Of a DNA stretch of 64,000 nt, positions 12,410 to 37,461 are shown in pieces. Made by a program: the position numbers and the translations under genes. The DNA is from an uncultured Verrucomicrobiae bacterium (lineage in GTDB: Bacteria; Verrucomicrobiota; Verrucomicrobiia; Limisphaerales; JAFGQR01). The stretch spans positions 64,001 through 128,000 of the forward strand of contig CAWBHS010000076.1 in the NCBI GenBank assembly GCA_963788655.1, in the 5' to 3' direction. Each line of letters opens with the position of its first letter. The stretch's first letter is position 1. The notes beneath the pieces were generated by a model. The model made no database searches. It had not been told where the DNA came from and saw nothing but the letters and a program-made list of their open reading frames with translations.

Positions 12410-12634
12410 ATGAGCTACCAAAACCTCATCACGATAGAACCCGGAAAGCGGGGCGGACGTCCCTGCATACGGGGAATGCGGATTACCGTCTCCGATGTAC
12501 TGGGCTGGTTGGCCACTGGAATGTCGCACCAGGAAATCATCGACGACTTTCCAGAACTGACGGAAAAAGACATACGCGCCTGCCTGGAATACGCGGCCGA
12601 CCGTGAGCGGCGGCTGGTTACCGTGAGCTCATGA
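12410..12634 (+). CDS. DUF433 family antitoxin
   Basis: ITIEPGKRGGRPCIRGMRITVSDVLGWLATGMS..DFPELT..DIRACLEYAA. Confidence 0.92.
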   Translation: MSYQNLITIEPGKRGGRPCIRGMRITVSDVLGWLATGMSHQEIIDDFPELTEKDIRACLEYAADRERRLVTVSS

Positions 12635-12963: not shown

Positions 12964-13150
12964 AGCCCCGAACGACATGGGCTGGGCACTGACCGAGAAT
13001 TGGCATGGCGAAGAGGCCGAGCGGGTGTAGCAGAAGATCGTGGATTTGACGCCGCCGGAATTTGAACGTCCATTCAACAACTTGAGGGAATTACGGCGGC
13101 ACAATCAATGCAGTGGACATCAAGTAGCTTGATCAACAACAGGAAATTCT

Positions 13151-15604
13151 ATGCAAACAACGAACCGCCTTCTTAACATGCTCCAAGTGCTGCTCTTGTT
13201 CGCTGGCCTCGTGCCTGAAGTGGGCGCGGTGGAAGGGCTTCTGGCCACCCGTCCAGACCAATTCAAACCGGTCACCCTGGAGGGGGTCCAGCCAAAGTTT
13301 TCTATCCCGCCCGATTCCCGGCTGGCGCGGAATGAGCATCCCCGGTTCCTGGTCACTCGGGAGGACTTGGAGACGCTGCAAAGACGCCGGTCTGATCCGC
13401 GGTTGGCGGCGGAATTTGAAGCACTGAAGCGACAGGCTGACCGCGACCGGCCAACCGACTGCATCGGCTTGAAACGCGCGCTGCTCTGGAAATTCACCGG
13501 CGATCGGAAATACCTCGACGCCATCAAAAATTCCCCGGATTTCAAGCGGCCTGCATGGACGTTCAGTTGGCCGGCCATGATCGACCTGATCTGGGATGAC
13601 TTGACGGCAGCAGAACGCACCGAGCTGTCCGGCCTGGTGGTCAAAGCAGTGAGCAAGGATGGCGCTTTGTATTGGCGACCGACACTCCACCTCGTAAGTG
13701 TGTTCTACGAAGGTGGCCAGGGGCCGAATGACCCGGCTTTGCTGACGCGAATGAAACACGATTTTGACCAGACACTGATCCAATGGACCGACAAGTTGAA
13801 CCGTTGGGCCGCCGGACGCGGCGGTTCGGACATGAGCCACGGTTACAATGGCGAGCACGCTTACTGGGAGCCGTTCGTAGCCGCGATCGGTTGGTCGCAC
13901 GCCACGGGCGAGGATTACCTGAGCCGCGCTGACTTCACCAAATACCAAAGTGCCTTTTACTGGTATCACTTTGTGCCGGGACTGACTCCGCTCACAGTCG
14001 AGAAAATCGGCGTGACGCGCACCGCCGACGATCCCAGTGCGGTGACGCCGGCGCACAGCGGCGCGAATCACTTGCTCTTTCTAACGTTCACCCGCGAACA
14101 TGACGGCCTGGGGCTGGCCTGGATGGAAACGTTCCACGCCCAGGAACCCGCCTGGAACCGTGACCGCGAAGCGTTGGGCCGGTTCCTTTGGTGGGACCCG
14201 GATCAAAAGCAGCTCGATCCCACGACACTCCCAACCACGCGCCTTTTTCCCACATCCGGCCACGTGACCATGCGCTCGGACTGGGGTGAGGACGCGACTT
14301 TCGCCACGTTTCGCTGCGGGCGTTTCGGGGAGATCGATGGCACGTGGGGTCGAAACAATGCGGACAATCTCAGCTTCACGATTCGCAAGCGCGGACCGCT
14401 CGCCATTGATTCCGGGCCGGTGCATGGTCAGAACACGACGGTGCTCAAGTTCTACGGTGAAGGGAGCGACTCAGGCATTCCCGCCATCGGCAACTACGGG
14501 CGCCAGACCATCGCGCACAATTCCATCACCATCGGCGACGGCGAATACGTGCATCGCGATTGGCGGGGCCGCACGACGGGCAACGTGGTTCGGCGCGGCG
14601 GACAATCGGTTCCGCAGGCTCCGGATTGGTGGGCCCAATGGGGCTTCACCAACGCCCAGAACGATTTCATGGAGGGACGGATCACCGCCTACCGCACCCA
14701 TCCGCTTTATGATTACGCCTGCGGCGACGCCCGCTTCAGTTATCCGCCGGAATGGGGCGTCCAGGAAATCACGCGGCAGTTCATCTATCTCAAACCGGAC
14801 GTGTTTGTGATCTATGACCGGCTGGTGCTGGCCGATCCGGCGAAGAAGCCTTGCTGGATGCTGCACACTTTGCGCGAACCCAAAGCCAACGGCACGGAAA
14901 CGGCGCTGACACCGGAAGAGATCGGTCCCCAGTATTTCTGGAGCGGTCAGGGGAAAGTGCCGCATCCCAATCCCGGTGGGCAGGTGTGGATGGGGGGTGA
15001 TGGATTCACGGTGGAATCCGGTTCGCCAGGGAAGCCGGGCGGCGGATGGCTCCACGTCCGCACGCTGTACCCGACTGCCAATGATTGCGAACGCAAGAAG
15101 ATCGGCGGCAAAGGCCATGATTTCGAGGTGGGCGGCGTGCAATACGGTTTGAGCGACGAAGGCTATCAACAGGCCGAGAGCCCCTACGCCGTACGGAGCA
15201 CCATTGGGTTGCTGGGGTGGCGGGTGGAACTCCGGCCCCAAACGCCTTCCCGCAACGTGGAATTTCTGCACGTGCTTCAAGCTGGCTTGAACGGTCAGAC
15301 GCCCGACGCCGTTCTTAGCGCCACCCATGAAACCACCGCGGCGATGCAAGTCGTCACCGTGCAACAGGGCGCCCGGCGGTTCGTCCTTCACCTCAATCGC
15401 ACCGGCCCACGGGGCGGTTCCCTTTCCGCAAAGGATGAGACTATTTACATTGATGACTCGTTGCCAACGCAAGTGGAAGACCACTGGCGCTATTTCAAAA
15501 ACGACCCGCATTTCAAAGACTGGGTAACGGACCCGCGCTATCGAGTCGTCATTGAGCCGACCGCCCAAGACCGGCAGTGTCTGGAGCAGTTATTGCCTCG
15601 ATGA
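13151..15604 (+). CDS. Secreted heparinase II/III-like (polysaccharide lyase-fold) protein
   Basis: Signal peptide; HPRFLVT N-terminal motif; GHVTMRSDW..ATF.CG, SFTI..RGPLAIDSG, QTIAHNSITI, VFVIYDR, WMLH, GWRVEL, FLHVLQ. Confidence 0.75.
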   Translation: MQTTNRLLNMLQVLLLFAGLVPEVGAVEGLLATRPDQFKPVTLEGVQPKFSIPPDSRLARNEHPRFLVTREDLETLQRRRSDPRLAAEFEALKRQADRDRPTDCIGLKRALLWKFTGDRKYLDAIKNSPDFKRPAWTFSWPAMIDLIWDDLTAAERTELSGLVVKAVSKDGALYWRPTLHLVSVFYEGGQGPNDPALLTRMKHDFDQTLIQWTDKLNRWAAGRGGSDMSHGYNGEHAYWEPFVAAIGWSHATGEDYLSRADFTKYQSAFYWYHFVPGLTPLTVEKIGVTRTADDPSAVTPAHSGANHLLFLTFTREHDGLGLAWMETFHAQEPAWNRDREALGRFLWWDPDQKQLDPTTLPTTRLFPTSGHVTMRSDWGEDATFATFRCGRFGEIDGTWGRNNADNLSFTIRKRGPLAIDSGPVHGQNTTVLKFYGEGSDSGIPAIGNYGRQTIAHNSITIGDGEYVHRDWRGRTTGNVVRRGGQSVPQAPDWWAQWGFTNAQNDFMEGRITAYRTHPLYDYACGDARFSYPPEWGVQEITRQFIYLKPDVFVIYDRLVLADPAKKPCWMLHTLREPKANGTETALTPEEIGPQYFWSGQGKVPHPNPGGQVWMGGDGFTVESGSPGKPGGGWLHVRTLYPTANDCERKKIGGKGHDFEVGGVQYGLSDEGYQQAESPYAVRSTIGLLGWRVELRPQTPSRNVEFLHVLQAGLNGQTPDAVLSATHETTAAMQVVTVQQGARRFVLHLNRTGPRGGSLSAKDETIYIDDSLPTQVEDHWRYFKNDPHFKDWVTDPRYRVVIEPTAQDRQCLEQLLPR

Positions 15605-16221: not shown

Positions 16222-17505
16222 GTGATAATTTCAGTGCTTACAGAAAATACCATAAATGCCGAATTTAACGAGGCGCGCGGCTGGATCTTCTACGACGCGG
16301 ACTGCGTGCTCTGCGTGCGAATCATGCGACGCGTTCGACGGTTGTTTGAAACGCGCGGATTCCACTGGCTGCCATTGCAATCGCCTGGAGCGGCGGCGCG
16401 GCTGGGCGTGAACGAAATTGCGTTCGCCACTCGCATGCACGTGCTCACCCAACGGGGTGGCGTGTTCCACAATGCCGACGCGCTGGGAATTCTTTGCCGT
16501 TCGGTCTGGTGGCTGTGGCCGCTGGGCGTCCTGCTCCTGGTGCCGGGCTTTCGCGGGCTTGCTCGCCTTGGCTATGATTGGATTGCCCGCCATCGCTATT
16601 GCTTGGGCGGACAGTGCGCTCGCCGGCCCGTGAAGCAAAGGTCAGCCGGCGTGGTCACTTGGATTCCCGCCGTGCTGTTGCCGATCTTGGCGTGGTTATG
16701 CACCCGGCACCTTCCGGCATGGCTGGTTATGTGGGCGTTGGCCTTCGCCCTGTTCGCCGGATGCAAATGGGCGACCTGCTGGGAAGCTTTCCGCGCTGGC
16801 CTGAACCCAAGCGGCAAACGTATCCTGGGCTACATATTTGTCTGGCCGGGGATGAATGCGCAGACGTTTTTCGACGAAAGCAAGGCGTTCGTGGTGGCGA
16901 GCAACGCCTGGGCCTGGGGACTGGCCAACTTGATTGGAGGCGCGGCTCTCGTCTGGGGAATTGTTCCGCAACTCATCGACGCGAAGCCGATGTTGGCCGG
17001 ATGGCTGGGGATGTTCGGGTTGGCGCTGATGTTGCATTTTGGGCTGTTCGCCCTGTTGGCCTGGGCGTGGAGGCGTGTCGGTGTGAACGCCACGCCGATT
17101 ATGCAAACGCCCGTGGCCGCGACGTCGTTGTCGGAATTTTGGGGAACGCGTTGGAACACTGCCTTTCATCAACTGGCGAATCGTTACGTGTTTCGTCCGC
17201 TGGCGCGTCGTGTCGGCGTCCGTATGGCGGCGATGGTGGTCTTCTTAACCTCAGGCTTGATTCACGACCTCGTCATCTCCGTTCCTGCGCATGCGGGCTA
17301 TGGATTACCCACGCTCTACTTTGCGATCCAGGGCCTGGGCGTACGGTTTGAACGAACTGGCATTGCCCGGAAACTTGGACTGGGAAATGGGCTCGCTGGT
17401 TGGTTGTTCACCATGGCGGTTACGGTGGGGCCGGCGGCTTTGCTGTTTCACCCGAAATTTGTCCACCATGTCATCGTGCCATTTCTGCGTGCCTTGGGCG
17501 CTTAA
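16222..17505 (+). CDS. Fusion of DCC1-like thiol-disulfide oxidoreductase (DUF393) and MBOAT-family acyltransferase
   Basis: N-terminal WIFYDADCVLC...GYDWIARHRY; C-terminal multi-TM region with ATSLSEFWGTRWNTAF and FLTSGLIHDL (MBOAT His). Confidence 0.82.
   Translation: MIISVLTENTINAEFNEARGWIFYDADCVLCVRIMRRVRRLFETRGFHWLPLQSPGAAARLGVNEIAFATRMHVLTQRGGVFHNADALGILCRSVWWLWPLGVLLLVPGFRGLARLGYDWIARHRYCLGGQCARRPVKQRSAGVVTWIPAVLLPILAWLCTRHLPAWLVMWALAFALFAGCKWATCWEAFRAGLNPSGKRILGYIFVWPGMNAQTFFDESKAFVVASNAWAWGLANLIGGAALVWGIVPQLIDAKPMLAGWLGMFGLALMLHFGLFALLAWAWRRVGVNATPIMQTPVAATSLSEFWGTRWNTAFHQLANRYVFRPLARRVGVRMAAMVVFLTSGLIHDLVISVPAHAGYGLPTLYFAIQGLGVRFERTGIARKLGLGNGLAGWLFTMAVTVGPAALLFHPKFVHHVIVPFLRALGA
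16229..16246. promoter_or_regulatory. Second copy of the operator (TTTCAGT-N4-ACAGAAA)
   Basis: Matches site 1 at 13/14 arm positions; lies within codons 3-9 of the next ORF. Confidence 0.65.
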
Positions 17506-17523
17506 ACAAAGAAAGGAATTAGC

Positions 17524-17940
17524 ATGAAACTCGTCACCTTACTCCAACTCGCCGGAATTATGCACGTGGGCTTGATTGGGGCCGGCGCACTGATGCCCGG
17601 CGTCGTCGGTCTGCGCGCGCATCTGGCAAAGCTGCCGCCGTTCATCCGCCGACTGGTGTGGGTCTATTACACCTTCATCGGTTTTTGCCTGATTGCGTTT
17701 GGTAGCATGACCTTCTTCTTCGCGGACGCGATGGCGTCGGGAACGCCACTGGCACGGGCGTTGTGCGCTTTCTTCTGCTTGTTCTGGATGCTGCGATTGG
17801 TGGTGGCGACCTTCGTGTTCGACCTCCGGCCGTATTTGACCAATCGGTGGCGCCGCCTCGGTTACCACGCCACCAATATCGTGTTTGGGCTGCTTCCCAT
17901 CATCTATGGCTGGGCAGCCTTGAAGGGAGGACTGACATGA
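17524..17940 (+). CDS. Hypothetical 4-TM membrane protein
   Basis: AAGGA SD upstream, four hydrophobic segments, ATGA overlap with the next gene. Confidence 0.75.
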   Translation: MKLVTLLQLAGIMHVGLIGAGALMPGVVGLRAHLAKLPPFIRRLVWVYYTFIGFCLIAFGSMTFFFADAMASGTPLARALCAFFCLFWMLRLVVATFVFDLRPYLTNRWRRLGYHATNIVFGLLPIIYGWAALKGGLT

Positions 17941-18722
17941 AGTCACCTATCAAATACGTCCGTGCGGTGATGACGCGACGGATTCTGGTCAATTTCCGGG
18001 TGCGACCGGAGGCCTTGCAAGCGGTGCTACCCGCGCCCTTCCGGCCCAAACTCATCAATGGTTGGGGCCTCGGCGGAATATGTCTGATCAAACTCCAACA
18101 CCTGCGACCTTGGTTCCTGCCCGACTTTGTCGGGACTTCCTCCGAAAACGCTGCCCATCGCATCGCGGTGGAGTGGACGGAGGCCGGTGTCATCCAAAGT
18201 GGCGTCTTCATCCCGCGCCGGGACACGAATTCAGTCGTCAACCTGCTGGCCGGCGGACGACTGTTTCCCGGAGCGCATCACTTTGCGCGGTTCCAATGCG
18301 CCGAGACGGAACAACAGTTTCAAGTCGCGCTGCGCAGCCGCGATGGGGAAACGGTTGTCCGGATCGAAGCCCACCTTGCGAATGAATGGCCGACGGGTTC
18401 CGTTTTCGCGTCGCTCGAACAAGCTTCGGCCTTTCTGAAGGAGGGAAACTGCGGCTGGTCGCCGTGTGAAGGCGGCCGCCATTTTGAAGGAGTTGAACTG
18501 CGCACCGAGCGTTGGGAAATGCAATCCCTCGCGGTGACGCATGTCCAATCCAGCTTCTTTTCGGACAAGCCTCGGTTCGCTCCCGGTAGCGTTGAGTTTG
18601 ACTCCGCACTGCTCATGCGCGGTATTCCACACACTTGGAACGCGCTGGAGTCTGGAAATTCCATCGTCTCTGTTCAACCCAGCAATCGCCACCGAACACG
18701 GACATTTCTCGAAATGCCGTGA
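17937..18722 (+). CDS. DUF2071 family protein
   Basis: RRILVNFRV.PE....LPAPFRPKL..G.GGICLI...SSENAAHRIAVEW...GVFIPRRDT. Confidence 0.8.
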   Translation: MKSPIKYVRAVMTRRILVNFRVRPEALQAVLPAPFRPKLINGWGLGGICLIKLQHLRPWFLPDFVGTSSENAAHRIAVEWTEAGVIQSGVFIPRRDTNSVVNLLAGGRLFPGAHHFARFQCAETEQQFQVALRSRDGETVVRIEAHLANEWPTGSVFASLEQASAFLKEGNCGWSPCEGGRHFEGVELRTERWEMQSLAVTHVQSSFFSDKPRFAPGSVEFDSALLMRGIPHTWNALESGNSIVSVQPSNRHRTRTFLEMP

Positions 18723-18763
18723 CGGCGATTCATGTCCACGCTTGATGCGCGCCAAACCAGCTT

Positions 18764-19696
18764 ATGAAAACGCAAGCGAACTACCTCACTCAGGTTGCCT
18801 GGCGAGATCTCGTGCCGCTCTCCACCGCCGAAAAGATGTGGGAACTCACGTTGCGCCTGCCGTGGCTTGGATTGTCATTGTGGCTTTACCAAGTCGGGTG
18901 GTGGCGGCTGGGAGCGATGGCCTCGTTTTACTTCTTTTTGACTGGTCTGCGGCAGTCCCACAATGCCCAACACTATTCGCTCGGACTTTCGCACCGAATC
19001 CAGGACACGATTTTGTTCATCCTGAGCGGGCTGATGCTCGCCAGCATGCATGCGGTGCAAGTGACACATTTGCACCATCACCGCCACTGTCTTGCGGAGG
19101 CTGACGTGGAAGGCGCGACGGCGCGGAAAGCCTGGTGGCGGGCCTTGCTGGAAGGACCGCTGTTCATTGGGCGGCTGCACTGGTTTGCCTGGCAGTTGGC
19201 GGGCCGCGTCAAGCGCCGGTGGATCCTCGCTGAATTGGCGGTGATGGCCGCATGGCTTGGACTGGTTTTCGGGGTTTTCAAATGGCCGGCCTGGCGTTGG
19301 CACGCGGGAGCCATGCTGGTGGGCGAATGTTTCGCGGCGTTCTTTGCGGTATGGACGGTTCATCACGACTGCGATTCCGACGCGGCCATCGGGCGGACCC
19401 AACGCGGCCGATGGTGGACGGCTCTGACTTACAGCATGTTTCTCCACGCCGAACATCATCTTTTTCCCGCGGTGCCTACGATTCACCTCGCCCGGTTGGC
19501 GGAACGGCTCGACGCCGCCGGCTTGAATTACCAACCTCAGAGTGTGTTTAAAACGGGTAGCCGCCAACCTCAGAACGCGGATTCGCCAGAGTCAAGTGGC
19601 CAAAACGTCCACCTCCTTGCGTCGGTGGCTACAGGATTACGGAATGTCAAAACATGCCCAGAGGTCAACTTGGGCCGGAGCCGAGCAAGACTATGA
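18764..19696 (+). CDS. Membrane fatty-acid desaturase-family di-iron enzyme
   Basis: Three His boxes HNAQH, HLHHHRH and HAEHHLFP with hydrophobic segments. Confidence 0.88.
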   Translation: MKTQANYLTQVAWRDLVPLSTAEKMWELTLRLPWLGLSLWLYQVGWWRLGAMASFYFFLTGLRQSHNAQHYSLGLSHRIQDTILFILSGLMLASMHAVQVTHLHHHRHCLAEADVEGATARKAWWRALLEGPLFIGRLHWFAWQLAGRVKRRWILAELAVMAAWLGLVFGVFKWPAWRWHAGAMLVGECFAAFFAVWTVHHDCDSDAAIGRTQRGRWWTALTYSMFLHAEHHLFPAVPTIHLARLAERLDAAGLNYQPQSVFKTGSRQPQNADSPESSGQNVHLLASVATGLRNVKTCPEVNLGRSRARL

Positions 19697-20649
19697 AACG
19701 TGAACGCATGATCATCGCCGGGGGCAGTGGTTTTCTCGGCCACGTTTTGCGGACCTACTTTCTCCAACGCGGATTTGAAGTGCTGGTGCTGACCCGCTCG
19801 GCGGGCAACGGGCCGGGCAATAATCGGAGCCGCGATTGCTACTGGGATGGTCGGACGTTGGGCGAATGGGCGCAGAAACTTAAAGGCGCTGACGTGCTCA
19901 TCAATCTCGCCGGGCGTTCCGTGAACTGCCGCTATCACGCGCGCAACCGCCAACTCATGATGGATTCGCGCGTCCATTCGACGCGGGTGCTCGGCGAAGC
20001 GATTGCCCGTTGCGAGTGTCCACCACGCGTGTGGCTCAACTCCAGCACCGCCACCATTTATCGGCACACCCTCGGTCCGGCCTGGGATGAGGCGGGCGAA
20101 ATCGGATCAACACCTGAGGCGAAGGACGCGTTTTCCGTTGAAGTAGCGACCGCGTGGGAACGGGTATTCCACGAAGCCGTCACGCCGGGCACCCGGAAGG
20201 TCCAGTTGCGTTCGGCCATGGTGCTGGGGCTCGGATTGAACAGCGTCTTTCCCATGCTGCAACGACTCGTGCGGTTCGGGCTGGGCGGAATGATGGGCAG
20301 CGGCCGGCAGTTCGTTTCGTGGATTCACCAAACAGATTTCTGCCGCGCGGTCGAATTTCTCATTCGGGGGGAGGAGTTCAGCGGGCCAGTGAATCTCGCG
20401 TCGCCTAATCCGCTGCCAAACGTGGAAATGATGCGCATTCTGCGTGAGGTGTGTGGAGTGCCGTTCGGCTTGCCGGCCCCAGAGTGGATGCTGGAGATCG
20501 GCGCCTTCCTGCTGCGCACCGAAACTGAACTGATCATCAAAAGCCGGCGCGTCGTGCCCGGAAAGTTGCTGGCGGCTGACTTCGAATTTCAATTCCCATA
20601 CCTTCGCGATGCCTTCGAGAATTTGTGCGCTCTTGAGAAGAAGCAGTAA
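19693..20649 (+). CDS. TIGR01777-family NAD-dependent epimerase/oxidoreductase
   Basis: AGGSGFLG, INLAGRSV, SRVHST, GSGRQFVSWIH, SRRVVP; ATGA overlap with the desaturase. Confidence 0.92.
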   Translation: MKRERMIIAGGSGFLGHVLRTYFLQRGFEVLVLTRSAGNGPGNNRSRDCYWDGRTLGEWAQKLKGADVLINLAGRSVNCRYHARNRQLMMDSRVHSTRVLGEAIARCECPPRVWLNSSTATIYRHTLGPAWDEAGEIGSTPEAKDAFSVEVATAWERVFHEAVTPGTRKVQLRSAMVLGLGLNSVFPMLQRLVRFGLGGMMGSGRQFVSWIHQTDFCRAVEFLIRGEEFSGPVNLASPNPLPNVEMMRILREVCGVPFGLPAPEWMLEIGAFLLRTETELIIKSRRVVPGKLLAADFEFQFPYLRDAFENLCALEKKQ

Positions 20650-21793: not shown

Positions 21794-24529
21794 TCAGTCT
21801 GTCTCCGCCAACAGCGTCAGCCAGAATGGATTCCCGGACGTGCCGTCAGGAGGCGGGTTAGCCAGGAAGATTTTGGAGCCGAGGTGTTCACCGAGCTGGC
21901 GGTAACTTTCCCATTGGGCCTCGTCGAAGAACTGGTCCGCCGTGCTCTGATGGGGGAAGTCAGGATTCTCCAGCATGTAGTTGCGGACGTTCGGCGGTTC
22001 ATCGCCCAGCAAGGTTGCCTTCACGTAGAGCAGCACCGAGCTCGTGTCTGTATCCGGGTAGTTGATGCGGAACAACGCGGCGCATTTCTTGGCCGGCTCA
22101 GTGATCCGACCGTCGGCGTCGCGGGTGGGCGTCATCTCATCAAACGTCCCGCCGTGCGGTCCCGGCACGGCCAATTGGTCGCGCACCGGACGGAAATACT
22201 CGCGCCATTGCTGTTTGGCATCCTTGCTTGCACCGGGGCGGGTGGTGGCCAGGCGGTCCACGGCGTCGTTCCATTCCTGGTCGGTGAACAGGTCCAGTTG
22301 CGCCTGGAAATCGATCCGCACTTTGCGCTGGAAGTTGGCGAAGTCGTCGAAGTCGTAATCACTGTCCGCGCCCGCATCGATGACGATCATGTACGGGACG
22401 CGGCGTCGCACCAGTTCGTAGGCGCCCAGGTTTTCGAAATGCCCGCCATCGGACAAATACCACAAGCGCGACCACGGCCCGGGAAAGCGCGCCAAGGCTT
22501 CGTCGAGCAGGCAACTTTGCGTGGGAAAAATGTGCGGCAGGAGCCACAGCAGCCGCCGCGAGAACGAGACGTGCGGCCGCATTCCGCGATCGGCGGCGCT
22601 CAGTCCGGTATCCCACCAGTAACCGGTGCGCAAGCCGCTCATAGTAAACAAAAAGGAGAGCGCCAGGCTGGTGTGCTGGCCCATGCCGGAACCGAAAGCC
22701 GCCCCCGAGATGGCCATCCACCGCCGCAGCGGCATGCTTTCGAGCCGCTCTTGCGTACCGCACCACGACGGGCGGACCGGCGGCGGATTGCCGCGGATGT
22801 CCAGCAACGGATGGGCAGTGCCGGGCACTTGGCCGACCGCGAATTGCGGCGCGTCCCACAGCCCGTGCCAATACCGTCCGATGCTCAGGCCGAGCGGACT
22901 GACGGCGAGGATGTTTCCCAAACGGTCGCGCGATTCGCGCAAGGTCAATTGGTCCACGGTCTCGTTTACGCAAGTTCCCAAAAGGTGCAACGGCCCGCCC
23001 GCCTTGAACGGTTGGTAGGCGGTCAGCGAATCGGTGTCGTCTCCGGGCATGACCTGGTCGATGTCGCGTCCCATGCGGTTGCGACTGGCCTGGCGCAACG
23101 GGTTCGACGCGCCGAGGTAAGCCCCCGCCAGGCGCGCCGCGTACGTTTGGTTAAGCGACGAACGATTGATGAACGGCAGCGACACGGGAAAGGCGAACAG
23201 GATCGAAAGAAACAAACCGCCGAGCACGAGCATCTCTCCGCGACGCGGCGTGTCGCCTCCGCCAAAGGTGGCATGACTCAGCAGGCACACCACGACGGTG
23301 GGTGGGGCAATCAACATCACCGCCACCAACGCGTTCACGGCCGGCAGGGAAAGCCAGCGCGTCAACGAGCTGGGATTTTTGTTTTTGGACTGCCATTGCG
23401 AAACCATCCTGGCGGTGAACTGCAACACGGGTAACAAACCCACCAGGACCGCACCCACCTGGGCCAGCGCGGCGAGGTAAGATTGGTTGTGGCGCAGGTA
23501 GGCTTCGTACACGGCGTGAGCCGCCGTGTCCACGAACGCAAATCCCAACAAGCTAAGGCCCAGGGCCAGCCACAATCCCAGGTCCAACGTTAGAATTGCC
23601 CGCGCGCGCAAGCGTTCGATCGAGTCGCCGCCGGTGCCGACGGCCGCATTCTGCAGCCGCACTTGCCACCAGGCGTGCTCGACAAAGAGGAACGATGCCA
23701 ACAACGGAACTGCCGCCAGCGCGGTGGTAGTGTTCCACCCGTTGCGCACCGTCAGCGAGAGCAGAACGGTGAGCACGAAAAAAGTGGCGCCCAGGATGGC
23801 GCAGTTGTAGCGCTCGGGCCAGCGCGGCGAAACGAGCCAATAGCCGATGCCGCGCGGAATAATGAACACCAGCAACACCAATTCGAACAGCATGAACCAC
23901 GGGCTCCAAAACGCTCCCAAGCCGCCGGCTTCCACCAAGTGCCCCAAGGGCATGTCTGCCCAATCGAGTCCGCCAATGTACGGAAACACCGCGGAGACTT
24001 TTTCCAACAGATCGTAACGAAGCGTGTTGGCCACCCCAAACGCCACGAACGCGATCAAGCCCACCACCAAGTGCAACGTCAAAAAATTCCGGAAGAAGAT
24101 CCCCAGGTTGGTGTGCAGGTCGCTCTTGCCGTTGGGGGCGATGTAGTTCCCGTGCCGCCGCAACCAGGTGATTTCCGGCGACTGCGGGTCCACTAATGCG
24201 CCTTCCACCAAGTCCGCCGGCGGAACCGGCGAGCCGCGGAGCCGGTCGAAGAATCGTCCCAGGAAGCAGCCGATGTAGCCGCCGCCGGAGATGGTCGAGA
24301 GCACGTCAACACGCCGAAGCAAGTGATGCTTCGCCAGCGCCTGCAACATCCCCAGGTTGAACGTCGCGCTGCGAATGCCTCCGCCGGATAGTCCCAGTCC
24401 CAGGGTGTCTTTCGGTAACTGACCATCGGCGGCATCTCCGACCGGCAGCCCACAAGTGGTCCGCCGCTCGTGAATGGCGGCGCTCTCCGCGCGGCGGAGT
24501 TCCGACGGGTAAATTTGGAAAGGTTCCAT
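21794..24529 (-). CDS. Large polytopic patatin/cPLA2-like phospholipase
   Basis: GLSGGGIRSA oxyanion motif, STISGGG nucleophile elbow, LSDGGHFENLG catalytic Asp, many TM helices between them, FPHQSTADQFFDEAQWESYR C-terminus. Confidence 0.88.
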   Translation of the reverse strand: MEPFQIYPSELRRAESAAIHERRTTCGLPVGDAADGQLPKDTLGLGLSGGGIRSATFNLGMLQALAKHHLLRRVDVLSTISGGGYIGCFLGRFFDRLRGSPVPPADLVEGALVDPQSPEITWLRRHGNYIAPNGKSDLHTNLGIFFRNFLTLHLVVGLIAFVAFGVANTLRYDLLEKVSAVFPYIGGLDWADMPLGHLVEAGGLGAFWSPWFMLFELVLLVFIIPRGIGYWLVSPRWPERYNCAILGATFFVLTVLLSLTVRNGWNTTTALAAVPLLASFLFVEHAWWQVRLQNAAVGTGGDSIERLRARAILTLDLGLWLALGLSLLGFAFVDTAAHAVYEAYLRHNQSYLAALAQVGAVLVGLLPVLQFTARMVSQWQSKNKNPSSLTRWLSLPAVNALVAVMLIAPPTVVVCLLSHATFGGGDTPRRGEMLVLGGLFLSILFAFPVSLPFINRSSLNQTYAARLAGAYLGASNPLRQASRNRMGRDIDQVMPGDDTDSLTAYQPFKAGGPLHLLGTCVNETVDQLTLRESRDRLGNILAVSPLGLSIGRYWHGLWDAPQFAVGQVPGTAHPLLDIRGNPPPVRPSWCGTQERLESMPLRRWMAISGAAFGSGMGQHTSLALSFLFTMSGLRTGYWWDTGLSAADRGMRPHVSFSRRLLWLLPHIFPTQSCLLDEALARFPGPWSRLWYLSDGGHFENLGAYELVRRRVPYMIVIDAGADSDYDFDDFANFQRKVRIDFQAQLDLFTDQEWNDAVDRLATTRPGASKDAKQQWREYFRPVRDQLAVPGPHGGTFDEMTPTRDADGRITEPAKKCAALFRINYPDTDTSSVLLYVKATLLGDEPPNVRNYMLENPDFPHQSTADQFFDEAQWESYRQLGEHLGSKIFLANPPPDGTSGNPFWLTLLAETD

Positions 24530-24548
24530 AATCGAAGTGAATTGATTT

Positions 24549-26548
24549 TTACTGCCGCCAGGCCGCCTGGATCGTGTCCGCCGCTTTTTCGCTGGCCATG
24601 TAAATGTCCGTCACGATGAAGTAACCGGGAATGCGCCAGAAGATCGAAGCATCCACCACGCGCAAGCCCGCCACCGGTTTGCGGCGACCATTTTCGTCCG
24701 GTTGGTCCAGCACCCGGAACTGGCTGTCCAATACCGCGGACGGATCGCCCGCCCGGCCCATCCGGCAAGTGCCGCAAGCGTGATGCCCCCAGGCTTCACG
24801 CTTGATCCATGCTTTAACCTCGGCGTCGGATTGGCAACTGGCGCCGGGATGGTCTTCGTTTTTCAAGCCGGCGCAATGGGCGATCTTGCGGACGAATTTC
24901 ACCCCCTCGATCAGGGCCTCCAAATCCGGGTCGTCGTCGGTGCAATCCGGGCGCGACACTTCCTGAAAATAGTGAAAGTTGATTTCCGGGCGATCGCGGG
25001 GATCGGTCCGTTTTGAGTCGTCACTTGGCCGTCGCGATTGGCGGTGTGTGATTTCAAAATGGCCCAGGTGAACAGATCACGTTCCGGCACCCGGGAGTAG
25101 CCGCGGAAGTAGCCGTAGAACTTCAACGGAATGCCGAAGATGAAGAGGTTGGGCTGGGGCACATCCGGGCGCGAACGCTTGAGGATCGCCAGGACGGCGC
25201 CGTTGCTGGCGTACAGTCCACTGCCGTCCTGACGCCACCGGGTCATTGGTTCGTCGGGCTGACCGTTCGCGGTGGGCATCGCGAGCGTGGCGCCATGCAA
25301 TAACTCGAAGTTCTCCGGCATTTTGCTGACAACCGTGACTTCGTAGCGATCCTGGAGGTTCCGTCCCACGCCCGGCGAAGGCACCAGACATTGGATGCCG
25401 AGGTCTTCGAGGTGTTGCTTCGGCCCGATGCCGGAGAGCATCAGCAATTGCGGTGTGTTGAACGCGCCGCCGGACAGGACCACCTCGCGACGGGCGTGAA
25501 CGCGACCGGCGGTTCCGTCCTGCGTCGAAGGATTGGGCACCGCTCGGTAGAGCTTGTCCCCAAGGCGGTATTCGACACCCGTCGCCCGCCATCCGCCTTG
25601 GCCATCAGCGTCGAGCAAGACTTTCGTGACCAAACAATCAGAAACGATCGTCAGCCGTTCCGGGTAGGTGCGCTGCACCGCTTGCAACCGCTCACGCGGA
25701 CTCGAACGGTGACCGCGCCTCGCCGTGTCATCTGTCTTTGGGCCGCAAATAGCCGTTGGAATCAAAGCGACGCCTGCGGGACGTTGTGCCTGCCGGCGCG
25801 CGTGGTTTGGGTCCAGTTCCTCAAAACCTTCGCCGGCCAGAATTCGTTTGATCAAACGTTTGGGTGGAGCTTCCAGTCCGGTCAAAACCGCGGCAGCGAC
25901 CGCGCCAAACAACATCCCGAGAAGCTGCTTGTCTCCCAATCCAATGCTCAGGTCCACGGTGCTCGTGTGCAGCCATCCGCCAAAGCCGTGACGCCCGCGC
26001 GTGGGATCGACTTCCCGGCCGAAGAGCCAACGCACGTGTTCGAGAGCTTTCTTCCAGGGCGTGGTGGGGCGCGGTTCGGGCAACGGGAGGAATTCGCAGT
26101 GCTCGATCTTTTCGAAGTAAGTCCGCATCGTGTCCGCCCGCCACGAACCATCCCCGAGGAACCACGCCAGTTCGTCCCAATCCGAATCGGGCCCGGCGAT
26201 GGTGATCATGGCGTTGTGGACCGTGCAGCCGCCGATGCCCGTGGCGCGCGGGTAAAAAATCCCCTGCTCTTGCTGGTCCCATTTCGGGTCCGGCGATTTC
26301 GGCTGGTCGTAGTGTTTGACGAAGAATTGCCAGCTTATCTCCGGATTCTCCGAGGCCGGTCCGTGCAAGACGGGGACCTGGGTAATCTCCTCTTCCTTGA
26401 ATTGGCCCGGCCCCGCTTCAAGCACCAACACATGCCATCCGTTCTCGGCCAATCGCGCTGCCAGCGGAGCTCCGCCGGCGCCCGATCCCACGATGATGAT
26501 ATCATACGGGCTGTCCTCGGGAGAGGTGGTCTTGGCGATGGTAGCCAT
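24549..26548 (-). CDS. GMC-family FAD oxidoreductase (frameshifted near 25.0 kb)
   Basis: YDIIIVGSGAGG, GGCTVHNAMI, GGAFNTPQLLMLSGIG, PGVGRNLQD, WGHHACGTCRMG, LRVVDAS. Confidence 0.9.
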
Positions 26549-26638
26549 AATTGATTCGTTACCTGGGGAGCGCGCCCGCCTCGGGCGCAGTGGTTGGCGC
26601 CTCGCCAACCAGCTCTGCCCCGCGGGCACGAACTCGTT

Positions 26639-29569
26639 TTAGAACGTTTTCATTAATTCGATGAGCGCTTCCTTGTCGTCGTCGCTCAAGTCCCGGAACC
26701 AGGGAAAATAGTGTCCCTTGTCCATGACAAAATCAGGACACTTGCTGACGCGCAGGAGCGCGGGAGCGATCTCCGTCCGAAGCACCTCCAATTTATCCTG
26801 GTCCTGCAAATGCCGGGTCTCGATTTCTGCCAGGGCATTCAGGGTCGTTTTGAGCGTCCGCTTCAGATGTCTGGTGCCGGCATCGGGATTGATGTTGGCC
26901 AGCAAGTCCACCGGCGTGCCGGCCGGAATGGGGCCCAGCCGCAAGTCACCCAGACCGCCCGCGAGGAAATAGATGAACAGTCCGAGCACCAACGCCAGAG
27001 CCAGTGACGCGTAGCCCGCCAACCGCTCAAGCCGGCCCGCGCGATTGGCCCCGCGGCTGACCAACAACAGCACGAGCGCCGCTACCAGCAGGACAATGCT
27101 GGGCACGGCCTTCCATTTTCCCCAGCTTTCGAGGACATCGGCCAGTTTGTCGAGCGCCGACGGCCAGGGAAGCCGGCGCGCGAAAGCCGGCACGTGTTTG
27201 GCGGGAATGATGATGTAGGTTTCGCAAGGCGTTCGCCAAATCAGGCCGTGATCGCGCGCCAATTGTTCGGCCGATGCGTAATTCGTGTTCTGCGCGCGCT
27301 GATCCAGCCAGAGCAGTTTGTGAACGGCATCGTCGAACGCAGCCAATCGTCCTTTCACCGACGGATCGTTGTTGAACAAACCCAGACTGTTATTGTGCAG
27401 AAAGGGCGCCGTCGCCCAAATCGACATCAACGACGCCGGCCGGTAGAAACCGGGTCCGCCGCCGCCGGGTGGACCGCCGTTCAAAGTGCGGTGCCGGGGC
27501 GTGAAGAAGTCGTCTTCTCCGTTCGGGCCTTTGTAAGGATTGAAGAACGGGATGGAACCAATTGAGGCCATGCCCTTGTAACTTGCCGAGGAAAAGTCTT
27601 CCCATAGATGGCCGCTCGTCCCGTTGTTGGCCATCGCGCGTTTCGGATTGGTGCCGACGTAGTTCACCGGCACGCGAAAGTCCGTGGAGAGAAAGTTTAA
27701 GCGCCAGAACTCAGGCAGCTCGACGATTTGCGTTGCCCAAGCAGCGTAATCGTCGCGCCGCAGCCATTGGCCGGGATCGTGATCCCACAATTCGCCCCGT
27801 TGCTCGCACTCAACGATGCTCTTCTTGCGGTCGGCAATCAGCGCCGCGTTGGTCTGCAGGTAGGCCTCCAAGTCAGCCTCTTTTTGCACCAGAAGGCGGG
27901 GATTCGTTTCGGGTTGAACGCTCGAATGGCAAACGATGCAGTTCCGGGCAAACACCCGCCGTCCGCGCGCCAGTTTATCGATGTGAATTCGTTTCTCAAC
28001 GTCGTCCGGTCCCCGCGCATCGAGCAACGGCATGCTGGGCGTGATCTTCAGAAAGTAATCGCGCAAAGCGCCAACGCGCAGTTGCGTAGCCCGCCAATAA
28101 AGCGAGTGTTCCCGGCAATCCTTGATGGTGAAGGGCAACTGGGTCCGGACGCGTTGCTCGGCGTTGGTCGCAGCTTTGGGCGGCAGGAAACCAATCAGCG
28201 GTTCGTGCAGCCGAATCCATTGCTCCGAGTAAGTGCCGATGTTCAGATACACCCGCGCCAATGCTCCCCAAACGCCAATCGAATCCGCGCCATCCAAAAG
28301 CACCCGCGGCACCCAGCGCGGATTCTTGTTGGAATCTTTCAGTTCCGGAATCAGGTTTGTGTACATCGCCGGCGGATCATTTGTTGGATCCCACCACAAT
28401 GAAGGCAGGTTCGTACTGTCGCCGGCCAGTTGTTCGCGCGGATTTTGAAACGAGCGCAAGATACGTTGCGGCACGCCAAAGATGGCGTTCATCGTGTTCG
28501 GATTGTTGATATTGTCGCTGGCGATGAGGGAGGTGTCGATGGTTCCCGGTGGCTGGCTGTCGAGCACGTGATAGACAAAATTATTGGTCGGCAGCAGGTT
28601 GCCGAAGATCGCGCGGATACGGAGGTATTGGCTGCCAATCGAGCCGGATAAGTTTTCCCAGCGCGGATTGGCTGGGTCTTGCGGCGGATTGAGCGGATGC
28701 GCGCTGGCATGGCAAAAGGCGCAACTCATCCCCACGCGAAACGGCCGGACCAGCTTGGGATCGCTGTAATAGCTTGAGTCCCGATAATATTTGCGCGCAT
28801 CCCATTGCTGCTGGGCGCGGGCATCGAAGTTCGGATTGGGAAACAGCCGGAGTCCGATGACCCCGCTGGACAAACCGTAGATGCGCCATGGAGGAACATT
28901 CGAATAGGCGCCGGTTTCGCCGTAAGGATCGTTTTGGTATTGCGCTGTGGCGGGGTCACCCGAAAAGACCTCCTTTAGCACTTTCCGCCGGTATTCACGT
29001 TCAGTCTCACCGACCGGTTGATCCAGCCAGAGGCCAAACTCGCCATCGGCGGGCTTAACGGTCTCGCGCATTTCCGGTTCGTTGACCATCCCGGCATTGT
29101 GCCAGCGCTGGCCGCGTTTCCGGCTGTCCAACAGTTTGAGCAGGTCCATGAAACCCAGACTGTGATCCGCCAGCCAATCCCAAAAGGCCTCATTGCCCCC
29201 GCACCAAATCATCCAGGTATTCCGGCCCAGCACCTCGCTGGGAGTTGCCACCGGATCCATCAGCACGCGGGCGCCGCGCTGCGGATGCAGGTCGAGCAAT
29301 GGGTCCGGCCAGGTTTCAAGCAGGTTCGTCGAGGTGCTGCCCGCGGGCGCGCTGATCACATCCATGCCCCGGAAGTAATTGACGATGAGTTGGGGATAGA
29401 ATTCGCGAGCGGCTTGATCCGGGGTCTTACCGGCGGCCTTGGCGGCGGCCATGGCTTCGTCGTCGGGTACCCCGCTGGAAGAATAATCGGCGGCAGACAA
29501 CGTTGCGGCCCACGTCAGGACGCCGAATAAACCCAGGCGGCACAGGCTGGTCAAGTTCATAAGAATCAT
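26639..29569 (-). CDS. Exported di-heme c-type cytochrome, RoxA/cytochrome-c-peroxidase-like
   Basis: Signal peptide; two heme motifs CAFCH and CIVCH; YRPASLMSIWATAPFLHNNS motif; C-terminal LSDDDKEALIELMKTF. Confidence 0.8.
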   Translation of the reverse strand: MILMNLTSLCRLGLFGVLTWAATLSAADYSSSGVPDDEAMAAAKAAGKTPDQAAREFYPQLIVNYFRGMDVISAPAGSTSTNLLETWPDPLLDLHPQRGARVLMDPVATPSEVLGRNTWMIWCGGNEAFWDWLADHSLGFMDLLKLLDSRKRGQRWHNAGMVNEPEMRETVKPADGEFGLWLDQPVGETEREYRRKVLKEVFSGDPATAQYQNDPYGETGAYSNVPPWRIYGLSSGVIGLRLFPNPNFDARAQQQWDARKYYRDSSYYSDPKLVRPFRVGMSCAFCHASAHPLNPPQDPANPRWENLSGSIGSQYLRIRAIFGNLLPTNNFVYHVLDSQPPGTIDTSLIASDNINNPNTMNAIFGVPQRILRSFQNPREQLAGDSTNLPSLWWDPTNDPPAMYTNLIPELKDSNKNPRWVPRVLLDGADSIGVWGALARVYLNIGTYSEQWIRLHEPLIGFLPPKAATNAEQRVRTQLPFTIKDCREHSLYWRATQLRVGALRDYFLKITPSMPLLDARGPDDVEKRIHIDKLARGRRVFARNCIVCHSSVQPETNPRLLVQKEADLEAYLQTNAALIADRKKSIVECEQRGELWDHDPGQWLRRDDYAAWATQIVELPEFWRLNFLSTDFRVPVNYVGTNPKRAMANNGTSGHLWEDFSSASYKGMASIGSIPFFNPYKGPNGEDDFFTPRHRTLNGGPPGGGGPGFYRPASLMSIWATAPFLHNNSLGLFNNDPSVKGRLAAFDDAVHKLLWLDQRAQNTNYASAEQLARDHGLIWRTPCETYIIIPAKHVPAFARRLPWPSALDKLADVLESWGKWKAVPSIVLLVAALVLLLVSRGANRAGRLERLAGYASLALALVLGLFIYFLAGGLGDLRLGPIPAGTPVDLLANINPDAGTRHLKRTLKTTLNALAEIETRHLQDQDKLEVLRTEIAPALLRVSKCPDFVMDKGHYFPWFRDLSDDDKEALIELMKTF

Positions 29570-29895: not shown

Positions 29896-31296
<1,401 letters not shown>

Positions 31297-31300
31297 GCAA

Positions 31301-32521
31301 ATGACCGACGCCTCCACAGGTCTGGCCCAGGGCGACCTCCAGGACCAGAAAGTCAAAGACTACCATTCGGACCTGGGTACGACGCAAACGCAAACGGTCA
31401 CTCTGCCCGGCTTCCGCACCCAGTCGGGCTACGTGTTCGAGTCGGTGGAAGTGGCGTACCAGACCCTCGGCACACTGTCGCCGGACAAAGACAACGCGAT
31501 CCTCGTATGCCACGCGCTTTCCGGCGATGCTCACGTGGCTGGCCTGAGTCCGGCCACCGGCCGCCCGGGTTGGTGGGATTACCACGTGGGTCCGGGCAAA
31601 GCCATCGACACGGACCGCTTCTTCGTGATCAGTTCCAATGTGCTGGGCGGGTGCAGCGGCACCACCGGGCCGTCGTCGATCAATCCGGCCACTGGCCAGC
31701 CCTACGCCATGAGTTTCCCGCCGGTCAACATTCGCGACATGGTGGCGGTGCAATCCCGTTTGATCGATCACCTGGGCATTTCCAAGTTGTTTGCCGTGAC
31801 GGGTGGTTCGATGGGCGGCATGCAGGCCTTGGTCTGGGCGGTGGACTATCCCAATCGCGTCCACACCTGCGTGCCCATTGCCACCTGCATGGCGCACACG
31901 GCGATGCAGATCGCGTTCAACGAAATCGGACGCCAGGCGATCATCACGGACACGAACTGGAAGGGCGGTCACTACGAGGCGGGACACCGTCCCGAACACG
32001 GCTTGGCGGTGGCGCGCATGGTGGGGCACGTGACGTATCTCAGTGAGTTCGCCATGAAGACGAAGTTCGGTCGGAACCTCCAACGTGAGACGCACCCGGA
32101 GGATTTGTTCCCCGAATTTTTCGCCATCGAAAGTTACTTGCAGTATCAGGGTGAGAGTTTTGTCAAACGCTTTGATCCCAACTCGTATTTGTTCATTACC
32201 AAGGCGCTCGACCGGTTCGAGCTCATGGAAGGCCGCCCCCCGCACGACGTGCTGGGCGGTGTCAAAGCGCGGTTCCTGGTCATCTCGTTTGCGTCGGACT
32301 GGCTGTATCCGCCCGATCAATCGCAGCAACTGGTCCGGGCGCTGAAGCGCTCCAGTGCGGTGGTCACCTACCTGAACATGGAGACACCGTACGGACACGA
32401 TTCCTTCCTGATCCACAACCCTGATTTTTCACAGGTGGTACACCACTTTCTCAACCGCGAGTATCACCGCCAACGCACGCCGTTGAAGAAAACCACGCAG
32501 GTAGTCCGCCACTCGCCATAA
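31301..32521 (+). CDS. metX: Homoserine O-acetyltransferase
   Basis: CHALSGDAH, SNVLGGC.GTTGP, GGSMGGMQ, SDWLYP, YGHDSFL. Confidence 0.95.
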   Translation: MTDASTGLAQGDLQDQKVKDYHSDLGTTQTQTVTLPGFRTQSGYVFESVEVAYQTLGTLSPDKDNAILVCHALSGDAHVAGLSPATGRPGWWDYHVGPGKAIDTDRFFVISSNVLGGCSGTTGPSSINPATGQPYAMSFPPVNIRDMVAVQSRLIDHLGISKLFAVTGGSMGGMQALVWAVDYPNRVHTCVPIATCMAHTAMQIAFNEIGRQAIITDTNWKGGHYEAGHRPEHGLAVARMVGHVTYLSEFAMKTKFGRNLQRETHPEDLFPEFFAIESYLQYQGESFVKRFDPNSYLFITKALDRFELMEGRPPHDVLGGVKARFLVISFASDWLYPPDQSQQLVRALKRSSAVVTYLNMETPYGHDSFLIHNPDFSQVVHHFLNREYHRQRTPLKKTTQVVRHSP

Positions 32522-32527
32522 GCCCCC

Positions 32528-33130
32528 ATGCCGTACCAACCGCTCTACGATACCGTGCTGGAATGGATCCCGCCCAAATCGCGGGTGCTGGACCTGGGGA
32601 CGGGCGACGGTGAATTGCTGGAGCGGCTCATCAAGACGAAACGCGTCTATGGCGAAGGCGTGGAACTGGATTCCAAACAGGTGGCCCGGTGCATCGAACG
32701 CGGCCTGGCCGTGCATCAGGGCGACGTCATGAACGGCCTGGACCAATACGGCAACGGCGCATTCGACTACGTCCTGCTGCTCGGCACATTCCAGGAATTG
32801 AAGGCCTCCGAGAAACTGGTCAATGAAGCCATGCGCGTGTCGCGGCGGCTCGTTGTTTCCTACAGCAATTTCGGTTACGTGCGCGCCCGGTGGCAGATGA
32901 TGGCGGGCGGCCGTTCACCGATGACGAAGGCATTGCCCTCGCCCTGGTACCGCACCCCCAATATTCATTTTTTCACGATCCTCGATTTCCAGGACTTTTG
33001 CCACGAAATGAATATCCGCGAACTCGAAACCGCCTATTTCAACGCGCGCGGCCGCGTGCGCTGGCTGCCCAACCTCCGGGCTGAAGTGGCGCTGACGTTG
33101 TTGGAAGGCGAACCGCAGCGGGCAGAGTGA
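32528..33130 (+). CDS. metW: Methionine biosynthesis protein MetW
   Basis: SRVLDLGTGDGELL, GRSPMTKALPSPWYRTPNIHFFTILDF; directly follows metX. Confidence 0.92.
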   Translation: MPYQPLYDTVLEWIPPKSRVLDLGTGDGELLERLIKTKRVYGEGVELDSKQVARCIERGLAVHQGDVMNGLDQYGNGAFDYVLLLGTFQELKASEKLVNEAMRVSRRLVVSYSNFGYVRARWQMMAGGRSPMTKALPSPWYRTPNIHFFTILDFQDFCHEMNIRELETAYFNARGRVRWLPNLRAEVALTLLEGEPQRAE

Positions 33131-37453: not shown

Positions 37454-37461
37454 GAGCGCGG

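Follow-up and report, generated by a model that had tools for sequence, protein, structure and literature searches.

A recurrent gene trio linking a putative RoxA/FadCcp-type di-haem cytochrome to a GMC flavoenzyme and a membrane patatin: a candidate lipid-oxidation module of Verrucomicrobiota and other phyla

Introduction

PA2077 (10S-dioxygenase) and PA2078 (7,10-diol synthase), the FadCcp proteins of Pseudomonas aeruginosa, oxygenate oleic acid (PMC4496055). The same paper lists H611 as the second axial ligand of the C-terminal haem of PA2077, and the gene length that it gives corresponds to some 634 amino acids (aa). The di-haem protein RoxA is secreted and cleaves polyisoprene (PMC6797691). 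In eukaryotes, lipase-to-oxygenase cascades release an acyl chain on which a haem dioxygenase acts, and a catalase-fold protein or a self-sufficient cytochrome P450 (P450) then acts on the hydroperoxide (PMC5617202, PMC13049297). Here we describe three adjoining genes of an uncultured Verrucomicrobiae bacterium that encode a putative di-haem c-type cytochrome of the RoxA/FadCcp type, a flavoenzyme of the GMC oxidoreductase family and a polytopic patatin-like acyl hydrolase. The trio lies in a stretch of 64,000 nucleotides (contig CAWBHS010000076.1, positions 64,001 to 128,000), termed the window and numbered from its first letter, of a metagenome-assembled genome (GCA_963788655.1; 8.96 Mb, 115 contigs, 86% complete).

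Like the cytochrome of the window, the FadCcp proteins (PMC4496055) carry a pair of CXXCH motifs, a MauG-type motif, which reads PYFHNGSVP in them and APFLHNNS in the window, and a conserved His some 20 residues from the C-terminus; a periplasmic location, predicted for the cytochrome, and a link to fatty-acid chemistry through gene context are further points of likeness. They are, however, soluble and about 630 aa long, and two tandem paralogous genes encode them, whereas the protein studied here has 976 aa, a predicted hairpin ahead of its last His segment, a long extra N-terminal region and a GMC–patatin partner. The likeness to RoxA, RoxB and RoxC (PDB 4b2n; NF050033, NF050034, NF051462; PF21419) consists of PF21419 matches in 13 of 17 family members and a weak RoxC match in one of the 17, and the C-terminal 25 residues of a short homologue from the same taxonomic order match the ends of RoxB and RoxC. 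RoxA differs in being secreted and in cleaving polyisoprene; the scores of the cytochrome lie far below the cut-offs, and its poor structure model gave no fold match to 4b2n. RoxA-type dioxygenases are marked by a hydrophobic distal pocket, with the Phe residues F301 and F317, and by stably bound O2. Canonical members of NF040606 (di-heme cytochrome c peroxidase) from two same-order loci (L013, L014) are collinear with the cytochrome over the second haem, the MauG-type motif and the C-terminus, and in L013 they share a cluster with a patatin; they differ in scoring 167–170 bits, above the cut-off, against 44 bits, and in carrying an N-terminal anchor in place of an internal hairpin.

Choline oxidase (3ljp) and fatty-acid photodecarboxylase (5ncc) share with the GMC protein the flavin adenine dinucleotide (FAD) fold, the N- and C-terminal Pfam domains and the catalytic His motif, from which the protein of the window is set apart by an insertion of about 170 aa with a hydrophobic segment in the N domain and, in most genomes, by fusion to a lipase. 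The membrane alcohol dehydrogenase AlkJ is a further GMC enzyme that may be close. The eukaryotic cascades and natural fusions, the latter including the coral catalase-related allene oxide synthase–lipoxygenase and the fungal dioxygenase–P450 proteins (PMC5617202, PMC13049297), share the cascade logic with the trio, whereas the bacterial set is predicted to span the membrane, has an oxygenase of an unrelated family with no lipoxygenase or animal-haem peroxidase fold, and includes a GMC enzyme that has no counterpart in the cascades. Literature searches, with supplements outside their scope, returned no description of the trio or of a GMC–patatin fusion, and no text in which 'RoxA-like' and 'patatin' occur together.

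Results

Gene order and fusion across phyla

The trio fills positions 21794–29569 of the window and comprises the following features.

26639..29569, minus strand: di-haem c-type protein, 976 aa (open reading frame (ORF), haem and MauG-type motifs, NF040606, PF21419, hydropathy)
24911..26548, minus strand: N-terminal part of the GMC oxidoreductase (FAD motif DIIIVGSGAGG, GMC_oxred_N), with the frame lost after ...RDGQVT near 25011-25020
24549..25013, minus strand: C-terminal part of the GMC oxidoreductase in another frame, reading KRTDPRDRPEINFHYF... and HHACGTCRMG (GMC_oxred_C)
21794..24529, minus strand: polytopic patatin-like acyl hydrolase, 911 aa (patatin motifs, about eight transmembrane segments)

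The first-pass annotation of this DNA had listed three same-strand genes with the motifs treated below, and all of these are present on the minus strand. Its gaps of about 90 and 20 bp agree with 90 bp from the cytochrome stop to the ATG at 26548, assumed to be the GMC start, and with 19 bp from the GMC stop at 24549 to the patatin ATG at 24529. Its description of the GMC enzyme as one gene has to be corrected to two ORFs in different frames, separated by a 1-base frame change.

A scan in which a single genome represented each GTDB species yielded 53 related loci, taken with flanks of up to 10 kb; their record titles refer to Verrucomicrobiota, Planctomycetota, Acidobacteriota, Casimicrobiaceae and one 'Alphaproteobacteria' bin. 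Of the 47 loci whose sequence extends at least 500 bp downstream, 45 have a GMC gene after the cytochrome gene and in the same orientation; of the 42 that extend at least 3 kb, 40 carry the GMC gene and 37 the orthologous membrane patatin. GMC and patatin form a single ORF of about 1575–1670 aa in 34 of 39 assessable loci, and the fusion is also present in a relative from the same order (G008); in five other loci (L046, L059, L060, L062, L066) the two are split or broken. The recurrence of this order in dozens of genomes from several phyla is more than chance. The trio had been proposed as a unit, with absence of synteny in other genomes named beforehand as the outcome that would speak against it; the counts for GMC (45/47) and patatin (37/42) bear the proposal out.

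The five loci without the orthologous patatin were inspected for what takes its place. Two Acidobacteria encode the cytochrome, the GMC enzyme and then an unrelated TIGR03607/DUF3376 patatin, one locus has an alpha/beta hydrolase after the GMC gene and one a small patatin adjoining the cytochrome gene, leaving L068 as the only one of the five without any acyl hydrolase substitute. Replacement by non-orthologous hydrolases thus keeps the same functions together. Because acyl hydrolases have been recruited independently and the GMC and patatin proteins are fused, these loci provide strong evidence for a shared function of the trio.

Both protein families are large. Homologues of the cytochrome number more than 2000 in a large protein collection, where labelled sources are Verrucomicrobiota and Planctomycetota and the only names are 'hypothetical protein' and 'mono/diheme cytochrome c family protein', and GMC–patatin homologues number about 1700, named only 'GMC oxidoreductase' or 'choline dehydrogenase-like flavoprotein'. 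Among the kin of the window the module is uncommon: at E ≤ 1e-20, 4 of 41 relatives carry it, as do 4 of the 301 genomes sampled from its own phylum. The other three phylum matches lie in open frames of 727–759 aa, the size of a short form of the cytochrome described below.

A di-haem cytochrome with a predicted membrane insertion

The cytochrome begins with a hydrophobic, signal-like N-terminus and carries the haem c motifs CAFCH (residues 283–287) and CIVCH (544–548) as well as IWATAPFLHNNS at 717–728. Across 17 aligned sequences C283, C286, H287, C544, C547, H548, H725 and H953 are invariant, as are A721, P722, N726, N727 and S728, which together with H725 belong to the MauG-type motif APFLHNNS (721–728), the counterpart of the pattern P-[YF]-[FL]-H-N-G-S given in PMC4496055. 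The conserved C-terminal segment holds GH953 and terminates in LMKTF. Hydropathy places a pair of hydrophobic segments (820–838 and 856–874), predicted to form a transmembrane hairpin, before this last conserved His segment.

NF040606 matched the window protein over residues 521–728 (44 bits, E 1.7e-11) and the RoxA-like model PF21419 over 709–728 (23.6 bits, E 3.7e-5). At E ≤ 1e-3 the two models match 17 and 13 of the 17 family members, respectively, with all scores below the curated cut-offs. The motif, here WATAPxLHN, had been read as a tie to the RoxA/MauG/CCP superfamily, an assignment in line with these family-wide matches. Searches of PDB sequences and profiles returned only weak matches to cytochrome c6, at the second haem motif. 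Together, the profile matches indicate that the cytochrome is a remote but consistent homologue of the RoxA/FadCcp-type di-haem proteins.

Two same-order genomes provided a bridge to canonical members. Both G005 and G031 encode a short cytochrome homologue, of 724 and 713 aa; behind it lie two small ORFs along with a pair of canonical NF040606 genes, whose products score 170 and 167 bits. G005 also has a 1063-aa patatin after these. These regions are listed here with the form of the protein that they encode.

L013:3798-13796 (G005): short cytochrome without the membrane insertion, with a canonical RoxA-like pair
L014:12013-18568 (G031): short cytochrome without the membrane insertion, with a canonical RoxA-like pair

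A hidden Markov model (HMM) built from the four canonical RoxA-like proteins of G005 and G031 matched the cytochrome family in collinear pieces: the second haem, the MauG-type motif (712–729 in the window protein) and the exact C-terminus (952–976, GH...DKxALIELxKTF). Using an HMM of the last 150 columns on 660 proteins, the four training sequences were followed by family members in all of the next 50-odd places, ahead of the first unrelated protein. A comparison of the cytochrome alignment (A1) with the four canonical proteins by hhalign gave a 28-column match at a probability of only 27%. The invariant GH953 aligns with a conserved GH of the four canonical members, making H953 a candidate second axial ligand of the C-terminal haem.

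Since the collinear pieces include the exact C-terminus, the membrane hairpin is best described as an insertion within a predicted RoxA-like fold, and not as a border ahead of a new domain. Between the MauG-type motif and the C-terminal His segment we counted, by a crude hydropathy rule, 0, 2, 4, 6 or 8 inserted hydrophobic segments in 36 of 42 proteins and an odd number in six. An even number fits a C-terminal segment that would return to the periplasm. The family would hence present an unusual fold, in which an even count of membrane helices is placed inside a periplasmic haem domain.

The flavoenzyme and the acyl hydrolase

The N-terminal part of the GMC protein, in an ORF ending at 24911, contains the FAD motif VGSGAGG and matches Pfam GMC_oxred_N with 77 bits (cut-off 23). 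Its C-terminal part, in the ORF 24959–24549 of another frame, contains the catalytic His motif HHACGTCRMG and matches GMC_oxred_C with 73.5 bits (cut-off 24.6). Catalytic residues are invariant across the orthologues. The domain gave no equivalog-level NCBIfam match, the score for choline dehydrogenase being 140 bits against a cut-off of 605.

The patatin-like protein bears the motifs GGGIRS (49–54), STISGG (78–83) and DGG (694–696). The oxyanion residues G49–G51 and R53, S54, the nucleophile S81 and the D694-G-G group are all invariant in 25 sequences, and the nucleophile elbow reads T-I-S-G-G, with Thr in place of the first Gly of GxSxG. A membrane insert of about 300 aa splits the domain, with about eight hydrophobic segments (residues 149–451, by hydropathy) between the first two motifs and the third. 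PF01734 Patatin scored 24.7 bits, below its gathering cut-off of 27.7, with a match to the N-terminal 45 domain residues only. In the fused orthologues the two enzymes are joined by a linker helix with the conserved pattern YPxxLRxxE...RR, and the N-terminus of the window patatin, YPSELRRAE, corresponds to this helix.

Predicted topology and association

Fused GMC–patatin proteins start directly with the FAD fold, devoid of a signal peptide, and the patatin domain is interrupted by an even number of helices; the GMC and patatin domains are therefore predicted to be cytoplasmic. By the same reasoning on signals and segments, the P450 and catalase-fold partners described below should also face the cytoplasm, whereas the di-haem domain and a recurrent DUF4331-like protein should face the periplasm.

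Complex prediction for the membrane part of the patatin with cytochrome residues 780–976 gave a score of 0.50 (runs 0.46, 0.50 and 0.52), compared with 0.00 for the best of three controls; the runs agree in at least 84% of contacts and the partners have a predicted local distance difference test score (pLDDT) of at least 63. In calibration, 116 of 157 solved complexes passed the mark, as did 2 of 215 mismatched pairs; among those that passed it at 0.60 or below there were just 18 of the 157, along with both mismatched pairs. These counts hold only roughly here, as the prediction used its own alignments. The model thus lends weak support to a possible physical complex of patatin and cytochrome.

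Recurrent haem and periplasmic partners

Additional genes accompany the module in many of the 53 loci.

L065:11408-17551 and L070:6154-12192: GMC–patatin–P450 triple fusions (Casimicrobiaceae)
L025:8979-10373 and 19 other loci: DUF4331-like, predicted membrane-anchored periplasmic protein (alignment A3)
L025:10377-11444 and 16 other loci: catalase-fold family (alignment A2)

All three Casimicrobiaceae loci encode a P450, which in two of them is fused to the C-terminus of the GMC–patatin protein, giving products of 2047 and 2012 aa, and in the third is encoded by the gene that follows. In the triple fusions it is preceded by its own hydrophobic segment and has no reductase domain. The Cys loop FSAHRQSCxG is present, the I-helix motif [AG]Gx[DE]T[TS] is absent in all three proteins, and the closest solved relatives are P450 BM3 and CYP4B1 (about 1e-8).

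In 17 of the 53 loci we found a protein of about 355 aa that carries no signal peptide and matched no Pfam, NCBIfam or PDB sequence. Its structure model (pLDDT 71, predicted template modelling score 0.80) matches catalases and catalase-related proteins, including 3e4w, the 33-kDa protein of M. avium paratuberculosis (Foldseek E 1.2e-6, Z 10.2, root-mean-square deviation 4.4, 195 aligned), and the coral allene oxide synthase 1u5u (Z 9.7), with 184 chains at Z ≥ 8. The lead from the protein Atlas gave the same fold assignment, and it is on the fold search and this lead that the identification as a catalase fold is based. The family has an invariant RRLxHPNG; the expected position of the proximal Tyr is variable and occupied by His in at least L019.

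The DUF4331-like protein (430–530 aa), which matches DUF4331 weakly, is encoded after the fusion gene in 20 of the 53 loci. It combines a signal peptide and an invariant SDHADP start with a membrane anchor at the C-terminus. Its predicted mature N-terminus S-D-H-A-D-P has His at position 3, resembling an amino-terminal Cu/Ni-binding motif. In Verrucomicrobiota loci HupE/UreJ-like genes, tetratricopeptide-repeat genes and a second DUF4331 protein are found near it.

Catalase-related proteins and atypical P450s are the two classes of haem protein known to transform fatty-acid hydroperoxides (PMC5617202, PMC8124189). The catalase-fold protein, the P450 lacking the usual I-helix motif and the alternative patatins and hydrolases all point to chemistry on fatty acids or their hydroperoxides.

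State of the copy in the window

In the window the GMC and patatin genes lie in different frames with a stop between them, and alignment with orthologues locates the 1-base frame change within the GMC gene at about 25011–25020, in or beside an A run. Moreover, this copy differs at 7 of 221 otherwise invariant columns, compared with 0–4 in most orthologues. These features suggest that the module could be a decaying remnant in this genome, with a frameshifted GMC gene and a fusion broken by stop and frame change. A public contig identical over 24421–24618 carries the same GMC stop and patatin start, which favours decay to the extent that this contig is independent, though it could derive from the same sample. 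A single soil-metagenome study contained a small part of the stretch (0.15 of words). Against decay, the cytochrome and patatin ORFs are intact, the catalytic residues of all three proteins are kept and split forms occur in the five other loci named above. The frameshift site itself has no read cover and lies in a segment, 24687–25301, covered by no public contig.

About 12 kb away, an intact double ATP-binding cassette (ABC) ATPase (34488–36284) has downstream of it two ABC-2 type permease genes (36250–38678, plus strand), which are fragmented into six or more pieces that lie in different frames. Either the transporter has decayed or assembly indels cluster at this place. Because several frame changes occur in these genes, assembly error remains a live alternative and is as likely as decay as the source of the GMC frame change. 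On balance we take decay of the module to be a serious contender that we would nonetheless bet against; if the frame change is real, the module in this genome may be impaired.

Genes around the trio

The trio is flanked by a 90-aa ORF, a nitroreductase gene, metY/metX/metW and a desaturase cluster. Tblastn searches with the 90-aa ORF, the nitroreductase, MetY, the desaturase, the short-chain dehydrogenase/reductase (SDR), the DUF2071 protein and the DCC1–MBOAT protein gave no match in the 53 related loci (metX and metW were not queried), and these neighbours are therefore not counted as parts of the module.

16222..20649, plus strand: lipid-flavoured row converging on the trio (DCC1-like/MBOAT_2 fusion, DUF2071, fatty-acid desaturase, SDR epimerase with DUF1731)
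30007..33130, plus strand: ordinary methionine set, divergent from the trio (O-acetylhomoserine sulfhydrylase, homoserine O-acetyltransferase-like hydrolase, MetW)
10566..15604: sulfatase and heparinase II/III-like genes

A scan for promoters and terminators found sites no more numerous than in shuffled sequence, and no RNA dataset was listed for the stretch.

Discussion

The gene set, its fusion and the independently recruited hydrolases are consistent with a module that spans the membrane and both frees and oxidises acyl chains, leading to oxylipin-like products or serving the handling of lipid hydroperoxides. We assign this interpretation a probability of roughly one half. The module would have two components: a GMC flavoenzyme linked to a Ser-Asp acyl hydrolase of the patatin type, as one polypeptide in most genomes and as separate genes here, and a periplasmic di-haem c protein of the RoxA/FadCcp type tethered by a hairpin within its own fold. 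The patatin domain would cleave an acyl chain off a membrane lipid. At the outer face the di-haem enzyme would then oxygenate the unsaturated chain, in a role like that of the Pseudomonas oleate dioxygenase, or handle its hydroperoxide, and the flavoenzyme might oxidise the hydroxyl of the product or supply H2O2. Further conversion of the hydroperoxide could fall, in many genomes, to a P450 or a haem protein of the catalase fold. The module would yield oxylipin-like molecules or clear peroxidised lipid. The trio put forward in the first-pass annotation as a release-oxygenate-oxidise module retains its standing as a functional unit, but a soluble chain of this kind does not fit the predicted topology, with GMC and patatin on the cytoplasmic and the haem domain on the periplasmic side.

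Several observations weigh against this interpretation. With catalytic domains predicted to face opposite compartments, a hand-over of substrate would need lipid flipping or a channel. The scores of the cytochrome stay under the curated cut-offs (44 against 150 bits for NF040606, 23.6 against 26.7 bits for PF21419), and its N-terminal haem region matched no known model. The AlphaFold2 model obtained from the 17-sequence alignment is poor (pLDDT 63) and gave no RoxA match; Foldseek found nothing in the PDB at E ≤ 0.001, and with VIA-align wide the match was limited to the membrane hairpin. The nearest solved relatives of the GMC enzyme, choline oxidase (4.6e-34) ahead of fatty-acid photodecarboxylase (6.7e-29), give no specific pointer to fatty acids. 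The GMC gene of the window is frameshifted and its copy is altered at otherwise invariant columns; furthermore, the catalase-fold gene was not found in this genome, 86% complete, where the DUF4331-like gene gave only a weak match and no clear copy. Finally, the catalase-fold partner could merely remove H2O2 made by a GMC oxidase.

This last point leads to the main rival, a hydrogen peroxide couple centred on a GMC oxidase, in which the di-haem protein, the catalase-fold protein and the P450 consume H2O2 as peroxidases or peroxygenases or detoxify it, and the patatin only supplies a substrate alcohol or fatty acid. GMC enzymes commonly reduce O2 to H2O2, all three recurrent kinds of haem partner come from H2O2-using superfamilies, and peroxide-driven P450s likewise have neither a reductase domain nor the I-helix acid-alcohol motif, as seen in the Casimicrobiaceae proteins. 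However, the GMC domain is predicted in the cytoplasm and the di-haem domain in the periplasm, nothing points to O2 rather than a quinone as the GMC acceptor, and the lipase–flavoenzyme fusion in 34 of 39 loci would be left unexplained. We consider this couple improbable.

The two remaining readings are weaker. A GMC dehydrogenase could oxidise a small, choline-like head-group alcohol and pass electrons to quinone, with the di-haem protein only as carrier or terminal peroxidase; the top NCBIfam and PDB matches of the GMC enzyme, choline dehydrogenase and choline oxidase, and the resemblance of the second haem region to class I cytochrome c would agree with such electron transfer. Yet the choline dehydrogenase score is far under its cut-off, patatins free acyl chains and not head groups, the MauG-type motif and RoxA-like C-terminus are typical of catalytic di-haem enzymes, and the recurrent P450 and catalase-fold partners would have no place in it, making it quite unlikely. 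An anti-phage or conflict system with the membrane patatin as membrane-disrupting effector, suggested by patatin phospholipases being effectors in some defence systems and by the patchy distribution (4/41 relatives, 4/301 genomes of the phylum), is rejected as highly implausible, since none of six scanned proteins matched a PADLOC model (E ≤ 0.01), no sensor, nuclease or cyclase genes recur beside the module and its partners are redox enzymes.

Returning to the release and oxidation of acyl chains, a bolder version would be a bacterial oxylipin synthase, in which a cytoplasmic lipase–flavoenzyme and a periplasmic di-haem dioxygenase form one complex that converts membrane lipid of the same cell into an oxidised fatty acid serving as a signal or for defence. 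We regard this version as speculative and, at present, unlikely.

Both protein families are large and unstudied and belong to phyla that are abundant in soil and water. The fusion and the repeated recruitment of lipases establish a firm, testable link between di-haem enzymes of the RoxA/FadCcp type and membrane lipid chemistry, a link for which experiments so far come from one Pseudomonas operon. Genetics and lipidomics are within reach, as the genome records include cultured carriers, namely Stieleria sedimenti, Stieleria mannarensis, a Rhodopirellula baltica strain and Paludisphaera soli. If true, the oxylipin synthase would be a prokaryotic counterpart of the phospholipase A2-to-oxygenase cascade, built from unrelated parts, and would be widespread in Planctomycetota, Verrucomicrobiota and Acidobacteriota.

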